Shown here: one piece after another, positions 4,681 through 14,671 of the stretch
Layout of the letters: each line of letters starts with the position of its first letter
Position numbering within the stretch: the stretch's first letter is position 1
IMG/VR virus record: IMGVR_UViG_2548876945_000002
Source of the DNA: a virus
Taxonomy: Duplodnaviria; Heunggongvirae; Uroviricota; Caudoviricetes
Strand: one strand, 5' to 3'
Length of the DNA: 17,117 nt
Program-made: the position numbers and the translations under genes
Notes under the pieces: generated by a model
Seen by the model: the letters and a program-made list of their open reading frames with translations, nothing else
What the model was told of the DNA's origin: nothing
Database searches by the model: none

Positions 4681-5204
4681 GCCGCCCTCCTGACGCCCTG
4701 CCCGATCGCCATCAATGCCGCTTTGGATACGGTAGTAAACATCCGTCGAGGACTGATGAACGGTCGCCAAATCAGCAGCATGGAGCCTTTGCTGTTTCCC
4801 TTCTTCTCCAGCCCTGTCGATGGTTCGATAAAATTAATCCGTCCATCAGTGATAATGCGAACTTCGTCAACACTCTCCAGAGCCTTGCTGAACCATCCGA
4901 CTGACATATCCTCTGGCACAAGCATAACTACCGTCTGTCGCTGTTGTATGCACTGCTCAGCGGCTTTTTCCACCCACGGCCTGATATTGCTGTGCGGTGG
5001 GTTATTCCAGATTGCACCGTGGCTTACCCACTCAGAATTGAGCGCGTCGTCGGCCTCAGTTAGCCAGTGAGCACACAGAGCATTTTTGTCGCTCGCTGCC
5101 GAATCCAGCCAGAATCCAAACTCAATATCCAGTGCATCAAAAAGCCAAAGCGGCGTTTGCCAGCAGTCCTTGTCGTGTGCTGGCGTATTTGATTTGATAG
5201 TCAT
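4677..5204 (-). CDS. Phage-type DNA N6-adenine methyltransferase (Dam family), about 175 aa
   Basis: Translation [25 protein letters not shown]...[16 protein letters not shown] carries an NPP(H/Y)-type motif typical of N6-adenine methyltransferases. Preferred start is the ATG at 5204..5202, which overlaps the HNH stop as ATGA; the ORF-track start is 5222. Confidence 0.7.
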
Positions 5205-5803
5205 GCAGCCCGATCTCCCCATCTCGCTTTCATTGTTTCATTTGCAAATCGCCAGAATCTTCCTTTGTGATATGAGCTTTCGCCATTACAGCAACGACTA
5301 ATTGACGAACTATCAAATCCTTCTCTGACAGCATCCATAGCTGCTTCATAATAAACCTCCTCCCCAGTTTTCATGTCAGTAGAAATAACAGCTTTACTGG
5401 CAGGATGATCACCACTAAATTTACCTAGCGATATAGGTATTCTTCCATTTTGTTTATATCCGTGCTTTGAGTTTTCAGAATGTGATACCCATTCAAGGTT
5501 TTCAGCCCTATTGTCATCTCTTTGCCCATTTTTGTGATTAACTACCAAGCCATCACAGAACCCTGTACAGAATGCTTTCGCAACTATCCTGTGGGCGCTG
5601 TATTTCTTACCGTATACCTTTATTTGAAGATATCCTGTCGACTTGCACTTGAATGGTTTTACGCTAGTGCCATTAATTATTTTCTTATATGGCCTCTGTC
5701 TAGTTGATGTTACTGTAATTTCCCTCGTAATAGACCTGAAATTTCCTTTATTGCTAACCTGATAAAATGGAATTCCTTCGATATCTACCCAAACCTCAAT
5801 CAT
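5201..5803 (-). CDS. HNH homing-type endonuclease (NUMOD4-like N-terminus, HNH core, C-terminal DNA-binding module), 200 aa
   Basis: N-terminal WVDIEGIPFYQVSNKGNFRS, HNH core NHKNGQRDDNRAENLEWVSHSENSKHG, C-terminal SISRCCNGESSYHKGRFWRFA. The region is AT-rich relative to its flanks. A GGAGG Shine-Dalgarno lies inside the ninB 3' end. The last codons encode KARWGDRAA (see findings). Confidence 0.8.
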   Translation of the reverse strand: MIEVWVDIEGIPFYQVSNKGNFRSITREITVTSTRQRPYKKIINGTSVKPFKCKSTGYLQIKVYGKKYSAHRIVAKAFCTGFCDGLVVNHKNGQRDDNRAENLEWVSHSENSKHGYKQNGRIPISLGKFSGDHPASKAVISTDMKTGEEVYYEAAMDAVREGFDSSSISRCCNGESSYHKGRFWRFANETMKARWGDRAA

Positions 5804-6289: not shown

Positions 6290-8170
6290 TTAATACTCCG
6301 TCACGTTTTCCTGTCGCCACGCCTCGTCATATTCCGATTTCGGCATATTGGCGATGTAGCTATATGGCGATCCTGATTCAAGTTGCAGGAACTGGTGCGA
6401 TTGCTCATCAAGGAACAACGGGACACCACCTTCCCAACCTTCGCCGTTACGTTGTTTTTCAAGCATCAAAACAGATGCCGGAGATGCCAGTAGCTGTTCG
6501 TCCTTCTCTGACATCTTTTCACCACTCTGAACTCTCTGTAACGCTCTCTCGCGAGCCTTGTTACGCCAGATGATGAAAAGATTGTCTGTCAGGTCTGTTA
6601 TCGCTCCAGAGCCTTTTACGTCCATTTTCCCGGTTGGTTTTTCTTCGCTGTCACCTTTTCGCGAGTGAGTAACGAGAATGACGTGGGAGTTTGTTTTGTT
6701 TTTGAAATCGCAAATCGAGTCAACAAACGCCTTCTGCCCGTTATAGTCATCGTCGCCTATGCCACATTTCATCAGGCTGTCGATGATGAATAACTGGATG
6801 CCGTATCGGCGGCGAGCGTAGTCGAATATTTCGATCAGCCTGTCGGCTTTCGCCGTTCCGGTCAGGCCAAACACCCAAAGTCTTTCGTCATAAAATTTAA
6901 ATGCAGAGTCAATTTCCAGCACTGGCGGCATCTTGCAGCACGTCGCCTGACGGGTAAGTCGCTTAAGGAGAATGCCTGGCTTCAGCTCAAGTGACGCGAT
7001 GCACGTCTTCACACCCTGACGCATTGCCTCAAGTGCCATATGCCCGACAACCTCCGTTTTTCCGTGACCGTTCACACCATTGACCAGCGTCAACTCGGCC
7101 TCACGGAACTGGAATTTATCTGCCAGAGATTCCCATGGTGGATTAAACAGATACTGCTGCTTGCCGTAGAAAGCGTTGATTGTGTCCTGGTAAAACTCTC
7201 GCGCGCTGTAGAGTTCTTCAGGATCGAAGTAGGATGCCGTGCCGATGTACTGCCAGATTTCATCCTCGGTAACACCGTTCATCAGGCATTCGTTGATGTC
7301 TTTGTACGGCAGAGTAACAAGACGGCAACGATGTTCACCGAGTCGGCTTGCGATTTCCCTTGCGGCTTCACGACCAACATCATCAACATCCATCGAGATG
7401 AATATTTCCTCAAACCTGTCGAGGTTGTGATACTCAAACTCAATCCACTGTTGCTTAGCGCCTTTCCCGCCACCAAACGGCACGGATAACGCCGAGATGC
7501 CGTATTGCGCATAGCTCATACAATCAATTTCGCCTTCGCAAAGTACAACCGCCCTCACGCCAGCGTCCAGAGCCTGCCATCCGAACAGACAAGGTTCGCA
7601 ATCACCTTCTGCCATAATGACTTTCTTCCCGTCCGGGCGCTCAGTGCTGATTCGCTTGACCTGCAACAACTCACCATCGCGTTTGTACGGAAGCACCAGA
7701 GCATCCAGTTCTCGTTCTCCATTCCACACCTTTCCGCTGACAACCTCGTAGCGCTTTACGACTTCTGGCGATATGCCACGCGATTGCAGGTACTCAAGAT
7801 GGGATTCTGTTCTGGTAACGTAGCGGGCGATTTTCTTGCGATCAGGTCTGGAGAATTTCTTCTCACGTTTGGCATCGAAATGGTGATCGTCATCCTTGAT
7901 ACCGAGAAATGCTTTCGCTTCCTGCATAGCCTGATGCAGGTTAATTCCACGACATGCCATCCACAAATCAAGCATGTCACCGCCGTCTCCCTCAGCGAAA
8001 TCAGCCCATTTTTTCTTGCCGCTAAGGTTGACCTTAAGGCTGTTTCCCTTGTCACCGTTGACGTTACCGGCAACCCACTCATGCCCCTCTTTCTTGCCGT
8101 TTGGCAACAGGTGCGGAGCCACCCTGTCAACCTGCGCCCAAAGCAGGTTGCTAAGTTCACTTGGCCTCAT
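6290..8170 (-). CDS. Replicative DNA primase-helicase fusion (TOPRIM primase domain plus DnaB/RecA-fold helicase domain), 626 aa
   Basis: Central TOPRIM-like segment (VVLCEGEIDCMSYAQYGISALSVPFGGG) and C-terminal Walker A (LVNGVNGHGKTE) and Walker B-like (LFIIDSL) motifs. It occupies the position of lambda P. ATG start confirmed at 8170..8168. Confidence 0.8.
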   Translation of the reverse strand: MRPSELSNLLWAQVDRVAPHLLPNGKKEGHEWVAGNVNGDKGNSLKVNLSGKKKWADFAEGDGGDMLDLWMACRGINLHQAMQEAKAFLGIKDDDHHFDAKREKKFSRPDRKKIARYVTRTESHLEYLQSRGISPEVVKRYEVVSGKVWNGERELDALVLPYKRDGELLQVKRISTERPDGKKVIMAEGDCEPCLFGWQALDAGVRAVVLCEGEIDCMSYAQYGISALSVPFGGGKGAKQQWIEFEYHNLDRFEEIFISMDVDDVGREAAREIASRLGEHRCRLVTLPYKDINECLMNGVTEDEIWQYIGTASYFDPEELYSAREFYQDTINAFYGKQQYLFNPPWESLADKFQFREAELTLVNGVNGHGKTEVVGHMALEAMRQGVKTCIASLELKPGILLKRLTRQATCCKMPPVLEIDSAFKFYDERLWVFGLTGTAKADRLIEIFDYARRRYGIQLFIIDSLMKCGIGDDDYNGQKAFVDSICDFKNKTNSHVILVTHSRKGDSEEKPTGKMDVKGSGAITDLTDNLFIIWRNKARERALQRVQSGEKMSEKDEQLLASPASVLMLEKQRNGEGWEGGVPLFLDEQSHQFLQLESGSPYSYIANMPKSEYDEAWRQENVTEY

Positions 8171-8274
8171 GATTCCCTCAGATTGAGATTTTTAAACCAG
8201 AAATCGACAAACGAAATACTTAACCAGCCGTGGTTATAACCAGCGACCAGTAGCGATTTGATTTTTGATTTCAT
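8167..8274 (-). CDS. Small ORF (35 aa) between the initiator and the primase-helicase
   Basis: MKSKIKSLLVAGYNHGWLSISFVDFWFKNLNLRES, found by manual translation (below the ORF-track size cut-off). AGGTGA lies 4-5 nt upstream of the ATG; its stop overlaps the primase-helicase ATG as ATGA. Confidence 0.3.
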   Translation of the reverse strand: MKSKIKSLLVAGYNHGWLSISFVDFWFKNLNLRES

Positions 8275-8277
8275 GGT

Positions 8278-9054
8278 TCACCTGTCGAAAAACACGTAGC
8301 CAGTTTTCGATACGGTGATTGCGGATGATGGTTTGGATTGTGGTTGAATGGTTTCTGGCTTTTCGTCGTTCCAGCGCTGACCGTTCAGGTAGCTCGATGG
8401 TAACAACCTGTCGAATCCGAACTGCTTACCATTCCTGCACGCAATGTCTTCTGCCAGCATCGTGGCAAACTCGCTTGCCGTCCCCCTGGTAGTTTTACGC
8501 CATTCCCTGAACTGTGTTCTGAATGCTGAAGCTGCGTTTTTCTTCCCGGCTTTCCGCATGCCTGCACACCAGAATATTTCCTCGAATGCCTTGTCGGTTT
8601 CTTCGTGACGGTCAGGAGTTTTTTCACACTCTGTTCGGACATGTTCGAACATAATGTTTTTAGGTTCATTGACTGGTTCAAAAGAGTGATAGGTTCTGGG
8701 GGCAGCTCCTGCCCCACCCCCTAGGGCAGCTCCTGCCCCACCCCGGGCAGCTCCTGCCCCACCTGATTCTGGTTGGATTTGTTGTGCATTATCCAGCGTC
8801 AGATAAAAAACGTTTGACTGGTTAAGCTCTCCTTTTCTTCTGAATTCCCTTTTCAAAAGCCCCATCTCTTCCAGTGCCCTAATGTGACTTTTTACTGTCG
8901 ATCTGCTCACCTCACACTGGTCAGCGACATGTTGATATGAAGGCCAGCATTCGCCATTATCATTGGCGTTATCGGCAAGTTTAATCAGAACCAGTTTTCT
9001 CAGTGGGTTGCCAACCTTTATATTCATGGCCTTAGCCATAAGATTCATGCTCAT
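8278..9054 (-). CDS. Putative replication initiator / replisome organizer (N-terminal winged-helix HTH, Gly/Ala linker, C-terminal domain), 258 aa
   Basis: Lies immediately upstream of the primase-helicase and downstream of cII, the lambda O position. N-terminal HTH-like segment LVLIKLADNANDNGECWPSYQHVADQCEVSRSTVKSHIRALEEMGLL. Contains in-frame iteron-like DNA repeats. Start overlaps the upstream small ORF as ATGA. The initiator role is inferred from position and architecture. Confidence 0.55.
   Translation of the reverse strand: MSMNLMAKAMNIKVGNPLRKLVLIKLADNANDNGECWPSYQHVADQCEVSRSTVKSHIRALEEMGLLKREFRRKGELNQSNVFYLTLDNAQQIQPESGGAGAARGGAGAALGGGAGAAPRTYHSFEPVNEPKNIMFEHVRTECEKTPDRHEETDKAFEEIFWCAGMRKAGKKNAASAFRTQFREWRKTTRGTASEFATMLAEDIACRNGKQFGFDRLLPSSYLNGQRWNDEKPETIQPQSKPSSAITVSKTGYVFFDR
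8697..8763. repeat. Three tandem iteron-like direct repeats (unit GGCAGCTCCTGCCCCACC, 21-24 bp period) inside the initiator gene; candidate replication origin
   Basis: Copies at 8701-8718, 8725-8742 and 8746-8763, each with an internal dyad GGCAG/CTGCC. They encode the GGAGAA-rich linker. An AT-rich stretch (about 8641-8697) follows in the gene direction, as in ori-lambda within O. Confidence 0.5.
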
Positions 9055-9194
9055 TTTGACTTCTCCGAAGTTTTGTACCTGTTAAGTATTTCTCTCAGTG
9101 GCACAGCTATTGCTGGATTAACCCCCTGATAAAACTGGTCACGTAGCACATCTTTTCGGTGATTAACGCGTTTATTTTCCTGCGTTTTTCGCAT
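9051..9194 (-). CDS. Small basic ORF (47 aa) between cII and the initiator gene
   Basis: MRKTQENKRVNHRKDVLRDQFYQGVNPAIAVPLREILNRYKTSEKSK from the internal ATG at 9194..9192, with GAGGT about 8 nt upstream. Stop overlaps the initiator ATG as ATGA. The longer ORF-track version would overlap the cII 3' end. Confidence 0.35.
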   Translation of the reverse strand: MRKTQENKRVNHRKDVLRDQFYQGVNPAIAVPLREILNRYKTSEKSK

Positions 9195-9216
9195 ATAATT
9201 ACCTCGTTGGATGTTG

Positions 9217-9513
9217 TTAAAATTCCATTTGTATTTGCTCAGAATCCTCGGTGGCAGCCGGGGATTTTTTCTTTGTGAGTCCATCAAGCGCATACTTAAA
9301 AGCCCTGCTAATCGGACTGATATCTGATGCCATTCCGAAAGCACACAAGACCGAAGCAATAAACCGCCAGTCCGTTCTGCTTATCTTCGATTCATGACAG
9401 CCAATCATCTTTGCCAGACCGCGCTGGGTAAGCGTTGACAGGTTGATGAGTAAATCCGTTTCTGCGCGATCAACGTCGCGCTGGGATAGTTTGCTGTAAC
9501 TTGTTTGTGTCAT
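9217..9513 (-). CDS. cII: CII-like transcriptional activator, 98 aa
   Basis: C-terminus LTKKKSPAATEDSEQIQMEF closely matches lambda CII (LTNKKRPAATERSEQIQMEF as recalled). Central HTH-like region. Sits downstream of cro and nutR. Confidence 0.85.
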   Translation of the reverse strand: MTQTSYSKLSQRDVDRAETDLLINLSTLTQRGLAKMIGCHESKISRTDWRFIASVLCAFGMASDISPISRAFKYALDGLTKKKSPAATEDSEQIQMEF

Positions 9514-9598
9514 TTCTTAATATTTCCAATAGTGAATAGTTAGTTGAAAGGTATGCGTGGAAACGCATATGGCCTTAGTTGGTCAGATATCTTGGGGC

Positions 9599-9613
9599 TC
9601 GCTTTGTCAGCGA
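9599..9613 (-). promoter_or_regulatory. Candidate nutR boxB hairpin (UCGCUGACAAAGCGA; 5-bp stem, GACAA loop)
   Basis: Minus-strand RNA forms UCGCU-GACAA-AGCGA between cro and cII. Its core CGCUGACAAAGCG is shared with the nutL candidate at 11770-11784. A boxA-like CGCUAUUUU lies upstream in the transcript. Confidence 0.55.
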
Positions 9614-9651
9614 CGTAGGACGAATGTCCATTGTGAAAATAGCGGTGTTAC

Positions 9652-9879
9652 TTATGCAGCCAGAAGGTTCTTTTTGCTTATTTCAAGCATTTCGCTTGCT
9701 TGATATTTGCCACCAGAAATCTCTTCGATTTTTGATGCGTATTTAGTTTTCCCAAAAAACTCAGTCTTAGGGAGGAAGCCGTTTTTGAGCCACTTATAGA
9801 CAGCCCTTTCGCTAACTCCACAAGCCTTCGCAACTTCAGGGATGCCGACACCTTTAATCGGCTCATCAAGATTTTGCAT
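9652..9879 (-). CDS. cro: Cro-like repressor (small HTH protein), 75 aa
   Basis: Divergently transcribed from cI across a 78-bp operator region. HTH segment GIPEVAKACGVSERAVYKWLKNG. ATG at 9879..9877 with AAGGA 9 nt upstream. Assigned mainly by position. Confidence 0.6.
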   Translation of the reverse strand: MQNLDEPIKGVGIPEVAKACGVSERAVYKWLKNGFLPKTEFFGKTKYASKIEEISGGKYQASEMLEISKKNLLAA

Positions 9880-9965
9880 AGGAATATCCTTTTTCGTACT
9901 TTCAGTACGTATTATGGTTGAACTGAAAGTTTTTGCAAGTGCTTTAGTATCGTACTCATGGTTCA
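9880..9965. promoter_or_regulatory. Right operator/promoter region (OR, pR, pRM) between cro and cI
   Basis: Perfect palindrome CGTACT-ttc-AGTACG at 9895-9909; related inverted element GAACTGAAAGTT at 9920-9931; third related site ATCGTACTCATGGTTC overlapping the cI start. Candidate pR on minus: TTGCAA (9939..9934), 16-nt spacer, CATAAT (9917..9912). Candidate pRM -10 TAGTAT at 9945-9950, 7 nt before the cI ATG. Confidence 0.55.
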
Positions 9966-10665
9966 GAATGAAAAAGTGCGCAAAGAATTCGCCCAGCGGC
10001 TAGCGCAAGCCTGTAAAGAAGCTGGTCTTGATGAACATGGTAGGGGAATGGCTATAGCCCGTGCCCTTTCTCTTTCGTCCAAAGGCGTTAGCAAATGGTT
10101 TAATGCTGAGTCTTTACCGCGTCAGGAAAAAATGAATGCGCTTGCGAAATTTCTAAACGTTGATGTTGTTTGGCTTCAGCACGGCACTTCGTTAAATGGA
10201 GCGAATGATGAAGATACTCTTTCATTTGTTGGCAAATTAAAAAAAGGGTTAGTGCGCGTGGTTGGTGAGGCAATTCTTGGTGTTGATGGTGCCATCGAGA
10301 TGACCGAAGAGCGCGATGGGTGGCTCAAAATTTATAGCGATGATCCAGATGCCTTTGGTCTTCGTGTGAAAGGAGACAGCATGTGGCCCAGAATAAAATC
10401 AGGAGAATATGTACTCATTGAGCCTAACACCAAAGTATTCCCGGGTGATGAGGTGTTTGTCAGAACCGTTGAAGGACACAACATGATTAAGGTTCTTGGC
10501 TATGACAGAGATGGAGAATACCAATTTACAAGCATTAACCAGGACCACAGGCCAATAACGTTGCCTTATCATCAAGTAGCAAAGGTGGAGTATGTGGCTG
10601 GTATTCTGAAGCAATCTCGCCATCTGGATGACATCGAGGCAAGGGAGTGGCTGAAAAGTTCGTGA
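9958..10665 (+). CDS. cI: CI-type repressor (N-terminal HTH, C-terminal LexA-like S24 autopeptidase domain), 235 aa
   Basis: N-terminal HTH (GMAIARALSLSSKGVSKW) and C-terminal S24 motifs (KGDSMWP). ATG at 9958 with no Shine-Dalgarno and a -10 hexamer only 7 nt upstream, suggesting a leaderless transcript as for lambda cI. Confidence 0.85.
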   Translation: MVQNEKVRKEFAQRLAQACKEAGLDEHGRGMAIARALSLSSKGVSKWFNAESLPRQEKMNALAKFLNVDVVWLQHGTSLNGANDEDTLSFVGKLKKGLVRVVGEAILGVDGAIEMTEERDGWLKIYSDDPDAFGLRVKGDSMWPRIKSGEYVLIEPNTKVFPGDEVFVRTVEGHNMIKVLGYDRDGEYQFTSINQDHRPITLPYHQVAKVEYVAGILKQSRHLDDIEAREWLKSS

Positions 10666-13545: not shown

Positions 13546-13663
13546 GCATAAACAACAGAATAAACACTGCACTGTGTATTCATTCCAACGAGTGAATACA
13601 CGGAGCAATGTCGCTCGTAACCAAACAGGAGCCGACTTGTTCTGATTATTGGAAATCTTCTTT

Positions 13664-13690
13664 GCCCTCCAATGTGAGGGCAATTTTTTT
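13664..13690 (+). terminator. Intrinsic terminator just upstream of the coiled-coil gene
   Basis: GCCCTC-CAATGT-GAGGGC hairpin followed by AATTTTTTT. It falls inside the ORF-track N-terminal extension of the next gene, so that gene more likely starts at 13703. Confidence 0.65.
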
Positions 13691-13702
13691 GACGGAGGAT
13701 AT

Positions 13703-14671
13703 ATGAGTGAAGTAACAGATTTAGTTGTTATTGAAAAAGCAAATGCAATGACTGTATTTCAGTCTGCCGACCAGATTGAAGAAATTCTCCAAAAGGTTGA
13801 ACGTGAAGTTATGTCCTTTGTGCCTGATATCACAACGGCAAAGGGCAGAAAGGAGATCGCTTCTCTGGCGTATAAAGTTGCGCAGACGAAAACATATCTC
13901 GATGGTCTTGGCAAAGACCTTGTTGCTGAACTGAAGGAAATTCCAAAGCTAATTGATGCCAACCGCAAAACAGTGCGCGATCGCCTTGATGAACTGAAAG
14001 CCAAGGCGCGCCAGCCTCTTACTGATTATGAGGAAGAACAGGCGCGGATTAAAGCCGAAGAAGAAGCTAAGGCAGCAGCTGAAGCTCTCGCAAAGCAAAT
14101 TGAGTCTGACCATGAAATAGCGATTTTGATGGATCGCGAATTTGACCGCCAAAGAGAAGAGGCAAGACTCAAAGCGGAGCAGGAAAAGCGAGAGCATGAA
14201 GAGCGCTTAAAAAGAGAAGCTGAAGAGAAAGCCAGAGCTGAAGCCGAAGCAAAGGCAAAAGCCGAAATTGAAGCAGCAGCAAGGCGAGAAGCAGAAGCTA
14301 AGGCAGCAGCGGAACGTGCAGAGCGTGAACGTATTGAAGCCGAGCAACGAGCACAGCGCGAAGCAAAAGAGGCAGCAGAACGAGCTGAAAGAGAAAAGCA
14401 GGCAGCGATTGAAGCAGAACGCAGAAAAGCACAGGAGGAGGCTGAACGAATCCGTCGCGAGGCTGAAGCAAAAGAGCAAGCCAGAATAGCAGAAGAAAAA
14501 AGAATCAAGGACGAAGAAGAGCGTAGAGCAAAGGATAAAGCTCACCGGAAAGAAGTAAATAACAAAATACTTGCTGACCTTATCAAGGTTGGAGCATCAG
14601 AAGATGTTGCTAAAAATATCATAACAGCCATCGTAAAAGGCGAAGTATTCGCAACAAAAATAACCTACTAA
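13703..14671 (+). CDS. Hypothetical protein with a long charged ER/K-rich alpha-helical (coiled-coil or single-helix) domain, about 322 aa
   Basis: Start ATG at 13703 with GGAGG 4 nt upstream. About 120-residue N-terminal domain, about 170 residues of EAEAKAKAE / REAEEKARAE-type repeats, then a short C-terminal segment. TolA-like in composition only. Confidence 0.7.
   Translation: MSEVTDLVVIEKANAMTVFQSADQIEEILQKVEREVMSFVPDITTAKGRKEIASLAYKVAQTKTYLDGLGKDLVAELKEIPKLIDANRKTVRDRLDELKAKARQPLTDYEEEQARIKAEEEAKAAAEALAKQIESDHEIAILMDREFDRQREEARLKAEQEKREHEERLKREAEEKARAEAEAKAKAEIEAAARREAEAKAAAERAERERIEAEQRAQREAKEAAERAEREKQAAIEAERRKAQEEAERIRREAEAKEQARIAEEKRIKDEEERRAKDKAHRKEVNNKILADLIKVGASEDVAKNIITAIVKGEVFATKITY

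Follow-up and report, generated by a model that had tools for sequence, protein, structure and literature searches.

We predict that three GC-rich palindromic repeats at positions 8699-8765 of a 17,117-nucleotide stretch of prophage DNA (IMG/VR record IMGVR_UViG_2548876945_000002, Caudoviricetes; the whole stretch is called the window below) are the initiator-binding iterons of the prophage's theta-type replication origin and lie where the gene for its initiator encodes a linker, a reading that we consider about 75% probable. The gene, an open reading frame (ORF) at 8278-9054 on the minus strand, encodes a protein of 258 residues, with an N-terminal winged-helix DNA-binding domain (residues 1-97; 8764-9054, minus strand), a linker of which the array forms part, and a C-terminal domain (residues 132-258 plus the stop codon; 8278-8662, minus strand). 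An origin at this place, by analogy with ori-lambda inside gene O, had been proposed from the letters of the window alone (the sequence-only reading below), and it is now supported by the position of the array relative to an annotated origin in phage ES18, by conservation in the initiator family, by covariation between the arms of the repeats and by an adjoining 35-bp element that is constrained as DNA.

Within the array, GGGCAGCTCCTGCCCCACC occurs as three exact direct copies (8700-8718, 8724-8742 and 8745-8763), which extend to GGGCAGCTCCTGCCCCACC(CC) at 8700-8720, 8724-8744 and 8745-8765, with start-to-start distances of 24 and 21 bp. Tandem Repeats Finder, run on the window, reports it with a period of 21, 2.9 copies and a score of 103, and at up to three mismatches the 19-mer has 3 matches in 17 kb against 0.01 expected, a number that none of 200 shuffles reached. 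The dyad, GGGGCAG-CTC-CTGCCCC at 8699-8715, is a 7+3+7 palindrome, longer than had been claimed; on the gene (minus) strand the three identical palindromes read GGGGCAG GAG CTGCCCC and are accompanied by a GGT/ACC flank, the unit at 8745-8765 being the distal one, followed by that at 8724-8744 and by that at 8699-8720, which adjoins the 35-bp element. Other particulars of the sequence-only reading were borne out here, namely the 21-24 bp spacing, the very high GC content (77.6% against 45.7% for the window) and the double use of the repeats as codons of a Gly/Ala linker (residues 98-118, translated as GGAGAAR GGAGAAL GGGAGAA). No other repeat set was found in or around the initiator gene and no other origin-like repeat cluster in the 17-kb window, a scan of 8100-9700 for promoters and terminators returned nothing at the repeats (its finds were limited to an oop-like terminator in cII and the hairpin at 8632-8661, both described below), and an Rfam scan of the whole window gave no family at its gathering score. 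A 10-mer, TTGACTGGTT, present on both sides of the array (8669 and 8814) was treated as a chance occurrence; its upstream copy is not conserved in relatives.

The comparison with phage ES18 places the array in the slot of a known origin. Window positions 8278-8662 recur at 93-96% nucleotide identity in ES18 and also in epsilon34, mEp043 and Sf101, and residues 132-258 of the initiator align with residues 156-282 of ES18 gp59 at 120/127 identities (94%). The primase-helicase encoded next to the initiator is likewise shared (588 of 626 residues identical to ES18 gp61, 94%), and BLASTP detects no similarity between the N-terminal domains of the window initiator and gp59. The ES18 record carries a rep_origin annotated as 'similar to lambda ori' inside gp59, where four lambda-type iterons (TCCCTCAnnnTGAGGGA) lie 39-123 nt past the boundary of the shared segment; the window repeats lie ~37-103 nt past the same ES18 boundary, with the mosaic junction at 8662/8663. 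The two initiators thus carry alternative cassettes beside one C-terminal domain and one helicase, Phage_rep_O with lambda iterons in one case and HTH_36 with GC-rich repeats in the other. Since the C-terminal domain and the helicase are shared and the N-terminal domain and the repeats differ, the DNA-binding domain and the repeats swap as one cassette, an arrangement that would follow from the repeats being cognate to the N-terminal domain.

The same arrangement recurs throughout the family of the N-terminal domain. A tblastn search with residues 1-97 retrieved 357 phage records, and a scan of IMG/VR added 80 further loci; the relatives (49-100% identity) come from phages of E. coli, Klebsiella, Pectobacterium, Pseudomonas, Vibrio and Aggregatibacter. 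We read eight annotated phages with 49-72% identity in detail (ZF40, RothD, PseuP_222, Vibrio D173 and D290, SfV, Aggregatibacter S1249 and mEp044), and in all eight, as in every intact IMG/VR locus, the winged-helix domain is followed by 1-6 units at intervals of 21-24 bp, which usually have a dyad core (e.g., GTGCAGGAGCTGCAC, GTGACAAAATGTCAC, TGCCATCTGATGGCA and GTGACACAGAGTCAC); over all intact relatives examined the range is 1-9, and the more distant relatives have 2-6 non-identical units. The type of unit tracks the clade of the N-terminal domain and its presumed recognition-helix sequence (e.g., RSTVK with GGGCAG, KRSVMN with GTGCAG, KSAVRN with TATGCCA and KRTAMR with GTGAC). The peptides that the units encode differ widely (GGAGAA, GSAGDS, PSDKMSP, GMPADST, PGVVTQSH and PVPPKSTA), and eight loci have the unit of the window, GGGCAGGAGCTGCCC, in two different frames of a single gene, with GAGAA and GQELP as its translations; mEp044 and PseuP_222 read their own units in two frames in the same way. 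Such a double reading is beyond what a repeat of the peptide could account for, and the Gly/Ala peptide would largely be a passenger reading of DNA sites in a linker that tolerates changes of length.

For covariation we took 48 distinct origin-proximal units, five arm pairs and 500 shuffles. Dyad-arm cells are paired in 89.2% of cases against 58.4% in the shuffles, and the covariation score of 0.66 (0.20 in the shuffles) was reached by none of the 500; all five arm pairs vary on both sides (e.g., the outer pair is G:C in 27 units and T:A in 21), and sliding the partner columns, as a control, lowered the score to 0.22 or less. Many internal units retain only the left arm (e.g., GGGCAGGAGATAACC), and such half-palindromes favour recognition by a protein over the formation of hairpins.

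Directly after the last unit lies the 35-bp element (8663-8697, minus strand; AGAACCTATCACTCTTTTGAACCAGTCAATGAACC on the gene strand), which encodes RTYHSFEPVNE and which we propose to be the origin core or a set of unwinding-element repeats. Its family consensus is AGAACCAGTCAC..., with the full form AGAACCAGTCACTCTTTTGAACCAGTCAATGAACC, and its peptide is (P/T)RTSHSFEPVNEP; it holds two copies of GAACCAGTCA, the first of which is degenerate in the window (GAACCTATCA). Codon use was compared among 34 representatives with less than 88% DNA identity in their N-domains. Where the N-domain has a conserved residue, the commonest codon averages 56% of the sequences, and of the ~50 informative columns not one is fixed; in the element, 9 of the 10 conserved-residue columns have a single codon in all 34 (AGA, ACC, AGT, CAC, TCT, GAA, CCA, GTC and GAA). 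Such use of single codons amounts to purifying selection at the level of the DNA. It shows no synonymous variation in loci L012-L018 and L021-L220, from phages of E. coli, Vibrio, Pseudomonas and Pectobacterium, and an exact-pattern scan of IMG/VR found it in 120 contigs, once in each, and in 113 of these the ORF around it fits the N-domain profile (the remaining 7 are cut by the contig end or frameshifted); on this count it is restricted to the one initiator gene family. By eye, no consensus for integration host factor was seen in it. The relatives diverge right after ...GAACCTAAA, where differing C-terminal domains start, and the partner genes differ too: ZF40 has a DnaB-like helicase, RothD and S1249 have a P-like loader, and the window has a primase-helicase. 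Therefore, the cassette consists of the N-domain, the iterons and the 35-bp element together.

In number the units are far from stable. Among 23 intact genes with near-identical N-domains, 1, 2, 3, 4, 5, 7 and 9 units are found in 5, 6, 4, 4, 2, 1 and 1 genes, respectively; the copies are identical within each array, and changes of number are always in frame. In one sub-lineage GTCAG replaces GGCAG in every copy of the arrays, and identical copies together with an array-wide variant are the signature of replication slippage or of unequal exchange between identical units. Single-copy arrays are common in this set, so three copies are not special and one palindromic site is compatible with an intact gene. 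When repeat number is compared across related prophages, the sequence-only reading is thus upheld in that arrays are present in the intact relatives and corrected in that their number, 1-9, is not fixed at three. Relatives that match only positions 1-486 of the query proved to have expanded arrays (e.g., 9 copies in locus L009) and not a different N-domain. A change in the recognition helix paired with the GTCAG variant was also considered and dropped, since only E63D accompanies the variant, and does so inconsistently (locus L023 has the variant unit without E63D). In two further IMG/VR loci, L025 and L061, the initiator gene is truncated or frameshifted within or just after the array, which suggests that slippage of the array may occasionally also inactivate the gene.

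The sequence-only reading had placed an AT-rich stretch after the repeats, as in lambda, and this holds only in part. GC content does fall there (34% at 8649-8698 and 34-36% over 50-80 nt), to a modest degree: 8% of the 50-nt windows of the window are as low or lower, and the opposite flank of the array, 8766-8845, is similar at 37.5%. Immediately beyond the mosaic junction lies a plus-strand hairpin (8632-8661; TGTTCGGA-CATG-TTCGAACA followed by TAATGTTTTT), which ES18 retains through a compensatory change of T:A to C:G and which might serve the origin as an accessory element or else be a terminator on the antisense strand; lambda, too, has a palindrome beyond its AT-rich region. Four nucleotides before the hairpin, a match to the DnaA-box consensus on the plus strand (8620-8628; TTTTTCACA) is noted as a lead only.

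Several of these observations weigh against an origin at the array. The flank is only moderately AT-rich and the 35-bp element itself is ~57% AT; the search of the window for DnaA boxes gave 2 matches where 1.9 are expected, which is not significant. The array-wide GTCAG variant weakens the dyad in a whole sub-lineage, which includes complete records of phages encoding the Shiga toxin (Stx) subtype Stx2a, and the unconstrained copy number implies either that a cooperative complex on several iterons is not obligatory or that some of these prophages replicate poorly. The covariation of the arms, taken by itself, does not separate binding of a dimer from formation of a hairpin. Finally, the papers that describe the corresponding replication module as phiStx2a_beta and as Eru5 (PMC4645166, PMC8951638) mention no repeats, iterons or origin for it.

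How far these points favour another explanation depends on what each alternative makes of the remaining evidence. In-frame tandem units that vary in number among close relatives do fit the description of a coding minisatellite (a variable-number tandem repeat), a description compatible with a function as DNA. The stricter version, in which the repeats are a slippage-prone minisatellite in a disordered Gly/Ala linker with no function as DNA and the origin lies elsewhere, would account well for the identity of copies within arrays, for numbers of 1-9 among near-identical genes, always in frame, for the frequency of single-copy genes and for the tolerance of the array-wide change, A to D in the peptide. 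It leaves unexplained, however, why relatives keep the DNA unit while the peptide changes, and even read it in two frames in one gene, why the dyad arms covary and the 21-24 bp phasing is held across genera, and why the array stands where ES18 has its annotated origin, and no other repeat set was found in the gene or its surroundings; we regard it as quite improbable. Hairpins formed by the dyads, either stem-loops in the mRNA that pause translation between the domains or cruciforms in the DNA, would preserve a stem of 5-7 bp and hence produce the same covariation, and at one arm pair 10 of 48 cells are G:T (G-U in the sense RNA), more than in any other non-Watson-Crick class. Yet the many internal half-palindromes cannot fold, the conserved unpaired flanks (GGGGGT or CCCCCT ... 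CC) and the two-turn phasing would have no role, Rfam gives no match and no terminator-like T-run follows the units, so that hairpins are, to our mind, very unlikely to be what the dyads are for.

Binding of the initiator mainly for purposes of control is a different matter, since it accepts the units as initiator sites and would have them act as a roadblock in the initiator's own gene, by titration or by pairing of DNA copies as in iteron plasmids. That copy number varies with no obvious loss of gene integrity, that the sites lie within the initiator's own transcription unit and that plasmid iterons are established to have such dual roles (PMC10602881 as background) would all agree with it. 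Against it stand the equivalence in position to the lambda-type origin of ES18 and the constraint on the DNA of the adjoining element; it is also less economical, the 17-kb window offering no alternative origin-like cluster, and it does not exclude a role in the origin. As the main role of the units we hold it to be unlikely. The origin reading remains the one that we prefer, and the array has the general features of iteron origins, i.e., direct repeats of ~17-22 bp that are helically phased, lie within the initiator gene and change in sequence together with the DNA-binding domain of the initiator.

On that reading, replication could proceed as follows. Transcription from pR, as the gene order indicates, would yield the initiator, whose N-terminal winged-helix (HTH_36) domain would then bind each palindromic unit, probably as a dimer; with units about two helical turns apart, the bound proteins would lie on one face of the DNA and could form a complex resembling the lambda O-some. 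We propose this step because the arms covary, the units are phased at 21-24 bp and the N-domain is inherited together with the repeats. The duplex might next open at the 35-bp element, with its GAACCAGTCA repeats and the A/T run and hairpin at 8632-8661, and the initiator may contact the 10-12-nt GAACCAGTCA repeats as single strands in the manner of TrfA and RepE; this, the weakest step of the mechanism, is suggested solely because of the strict conservation at the DNA level. The C-terminal domain (residues 132-258) would then recruit a T7-gp4-like primase-helicase with no separate loader, a step proposed because C-domain and helicase are co-inherited in ES18 and its relatives. Slippage between identical units would give rise to the variants with 1-9 copies.

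Set against known systems, the predicted origin is closest in architecture to ori-lambda, which also lies within the initiator gene, between the parts that encode the N-terminal DNA-binding and the C-terminal recruiting domains, and also consists of several ~20-bp dyad units followed, in the direction of pR transcription, by a segment of lower GC content; the gene order (cI, cro, cII, initiator and a gene with helicase function) is the same. Unlike lambda, the window has an N-domain of the HTH_36 and not the Phage_rep_O family, a primase-helicase instead of a P loader as the partner, units that are 78% GC, mutually identical and hypervariable in number, and a strictly conserved 35-bp element in place of a strongly AT-rich tract. 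ES18, together with epsilon34, mEp043 and Sf101, shares the 94% identical C-domain and primase-helicase and has its origin annotated at the equivalent position, and it differs in combining a lambda-like N-domain with TCCCTCAnnnTGAGGGA, where the window has an unrelated winged helix-turn-helix domain with GGGGCAGGAGCTGCCCC units. Distinct iterons inside the initiator genes of lambda, P22 and L, with a specificity that co-varies with the initiator, have been described (PMC8022706). Gene 18 of P22 and of phage L similarly has iterons inside the initiator coding region (with a rep_origin annotated in P22), whereas P22 gp18 is a Phage_rep_O protein that works beside the DnaB-type helicase gp12 and the P22 repeats are AT-rich.

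Plasmid initiators bind the repeats of their origins both as duplex and as single strands (TrfA on the 13-mers of RK2 and RepE on the 8-mers of F; PMC10602881), and plasmid Rep proteins with an HTH_36 domain have been described in Paracoccus (PMC3832669). These iteron plasmids (F RepE, RK2 TrfA) resemble the window in having a winged-helix initiator and phased direct repeats beside an unwinding element with short repeats of its own; their iterons are, however, usually non-coding and non-palindromic, while the sites in the window are translated and palindromic. The phiStx2a_beta or Eru5 phages (Stx2a_F403, phi24B and Min27) have the same module at 99% nucleotide identity, with HTH_36 protein and primase, and differ in that the window prophage has no stx between Q and holin; the published descriptions of these phages locate no origin. 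What belongs to this module itself is the family of the DNA-binding domain, the sequence of the sites, the instability of copy number and the invariant 35-bp element. Our literature searches found no paper with the sequences of the repeats or of the 35-bp element; those combining iteron with phi24B and Stx, and HTH_36 with iteron, found no description of an origin for the phage module (the latter returned plasmid work only), and that for SfV orf39 returned unrelated viruses only. The lambda-like architecture is thus known, and the origin of this initiator family, phi24B included, appears not to have been described yet.

The module matters beyond this prophage, as the type of replication module in Stx2a phages has been linked to the Shiga toxin output of the host strain (PMC4645166, PMC8951638). 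It is carried by phi24B, Min27 and the beta/Eru5 Stx2a phages, for which the location of the origin is absent from the papers searched, and the origin proposed at 8663-8765 supplies a concrete fragment. The copy number of the array explains why the 'O' gene differs in length from strain to strain, and the natural series of 1-9 iterons is material for asking how the number of sites affects phage replication. The architecture also provides a simple rule for locating origins in a large group of phage genes labelled 'helix-turn-helix domain-containing', and the family comparison reveals, in addition, the 35-bp element with its strict and unexplained conservation. As a tentative generalization, which we think doubtful, the 'O-like' HTH_36 initiators of gammaproteobacterial temperate phages might share a hitherto undescribed three-part intragenic origin, made up of palindromic iterons that track specificity, an invariant 35-bp core (AGAACCAGTCACTCTTTTGAACCAGTCAATGAACC) that all of them read alike, perhaps as repeats bound as single strands by a conserved part of the initiator, and a swappable C-domain that serves at least three helicase systems; in the phi24B/Eru5 lineage, slippage between 1 and 9 iterons could then give heritable control over phage replication and, through it, over the dose of toxin.

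The assignment of the 258-residue protein follows from its domains and its surroundings. Residues 17-67 match Pfam HTH_36 (E = 5e-14), only HTH_36 and related helix-turn-helix models are returned by the Pfam scan, and among PHROG families the protein hits those labelled replication initiation or O-like. Phage_rep_O (PF04492) has no match in it in the Pfam scan, as against P22 gp18 (7e-38) and ES18 gp59 (1e-35) in the same kind of scan, and a sequence search of the PDB gave only insignificant helix-turn-helix matches (E of 0.28 or worse). The 'O-like' label of the sequence-only reading is accordingly apt for position and architecture and wrong for family. Its identification of the partner as a primase-helicase and not a P-type loader is correct (6290-8170, minus strand; 626 residues with Toprim_2 and DnaB_C/AAA_25), though the pairing of an O-type initiator with a primase-helicase is not new, being already known from the annotation of ES18 gp59 and gp61.

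The region is a lambdoid prophage's early right operon: on the minus strand a cro-like gene (9652-9879) and cII (9217-9513) precede the initiator and the primase-helicase, after which come ninB, an HNH endonuclease, dam and an antirepressor and, farther on, the genes for Q and a holin, while the plus strand carries cI (9958-10665) and N. The initiator gene shares 99% identity with the 'O' gene found in the Stx2a phages phi24B, Min27 and Stx2a_F403/F451 (99.1% to AP012529 in the Stx2a_F403 comparison, where HTH_36 protein and primase are encoded in a pR operon that diverges from cI). The module of phi24B, Min27 and Stx2a_F403/F451 is the one that Ogura et al. call the phiStx2a_beta subtype (PMC4645166) and Fagerlund et al., who describe it as an HTH_36 protein plus a primase, call Eru5 (PMC8951638). 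In the GenBank records HM208303 (phi24B) and EU311208 (Min27) the HTH_36 initiator and the primase-helicase are annotated 'O' and 'P', names that reflect where the genes lie and not homology; in RefSeq the initiator appears as 'helix-turn-helix domain-containing protein' and the primase-helicase as 'toprim domain-containing protein'. At most 49% of the window is covered by any one phage record. At 651-2088, the window has no stx genes, because only ~600 bp separate the antiterminator gene Q (1570-2088) from the holin gene (651-974), and the prophage is an stx-negative mosaic relative of phi24B/Stx2a_F403.

Other features of the window lie apart from the origin. A GC-rich hairpin followed by a T-run (9241-9268, plus strand) is antisense to the 3' part of cII (minus strand) and resembles a terminator for an antisense RNA of the oop type, such as is annotated at the same place in P22. 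A 102-residue ORF that overlaps cII (9051-9359, minus strand) matches phrog_1913 ('tail protein', equivalent to P22 orf48) with its last 47 residues only; the real gene is probably short and the 'tail protein' label doubtful. The HNH endonuclease, of the homing type (NUMOD4 plus HNH_3; 5201-5803, minus strand), is inserted between ninB and dam, and tandem repeats of 6 and 15 nt (14171-14332, plus strand) lie within an ORF at 13649-14671 that has no Pfam match.

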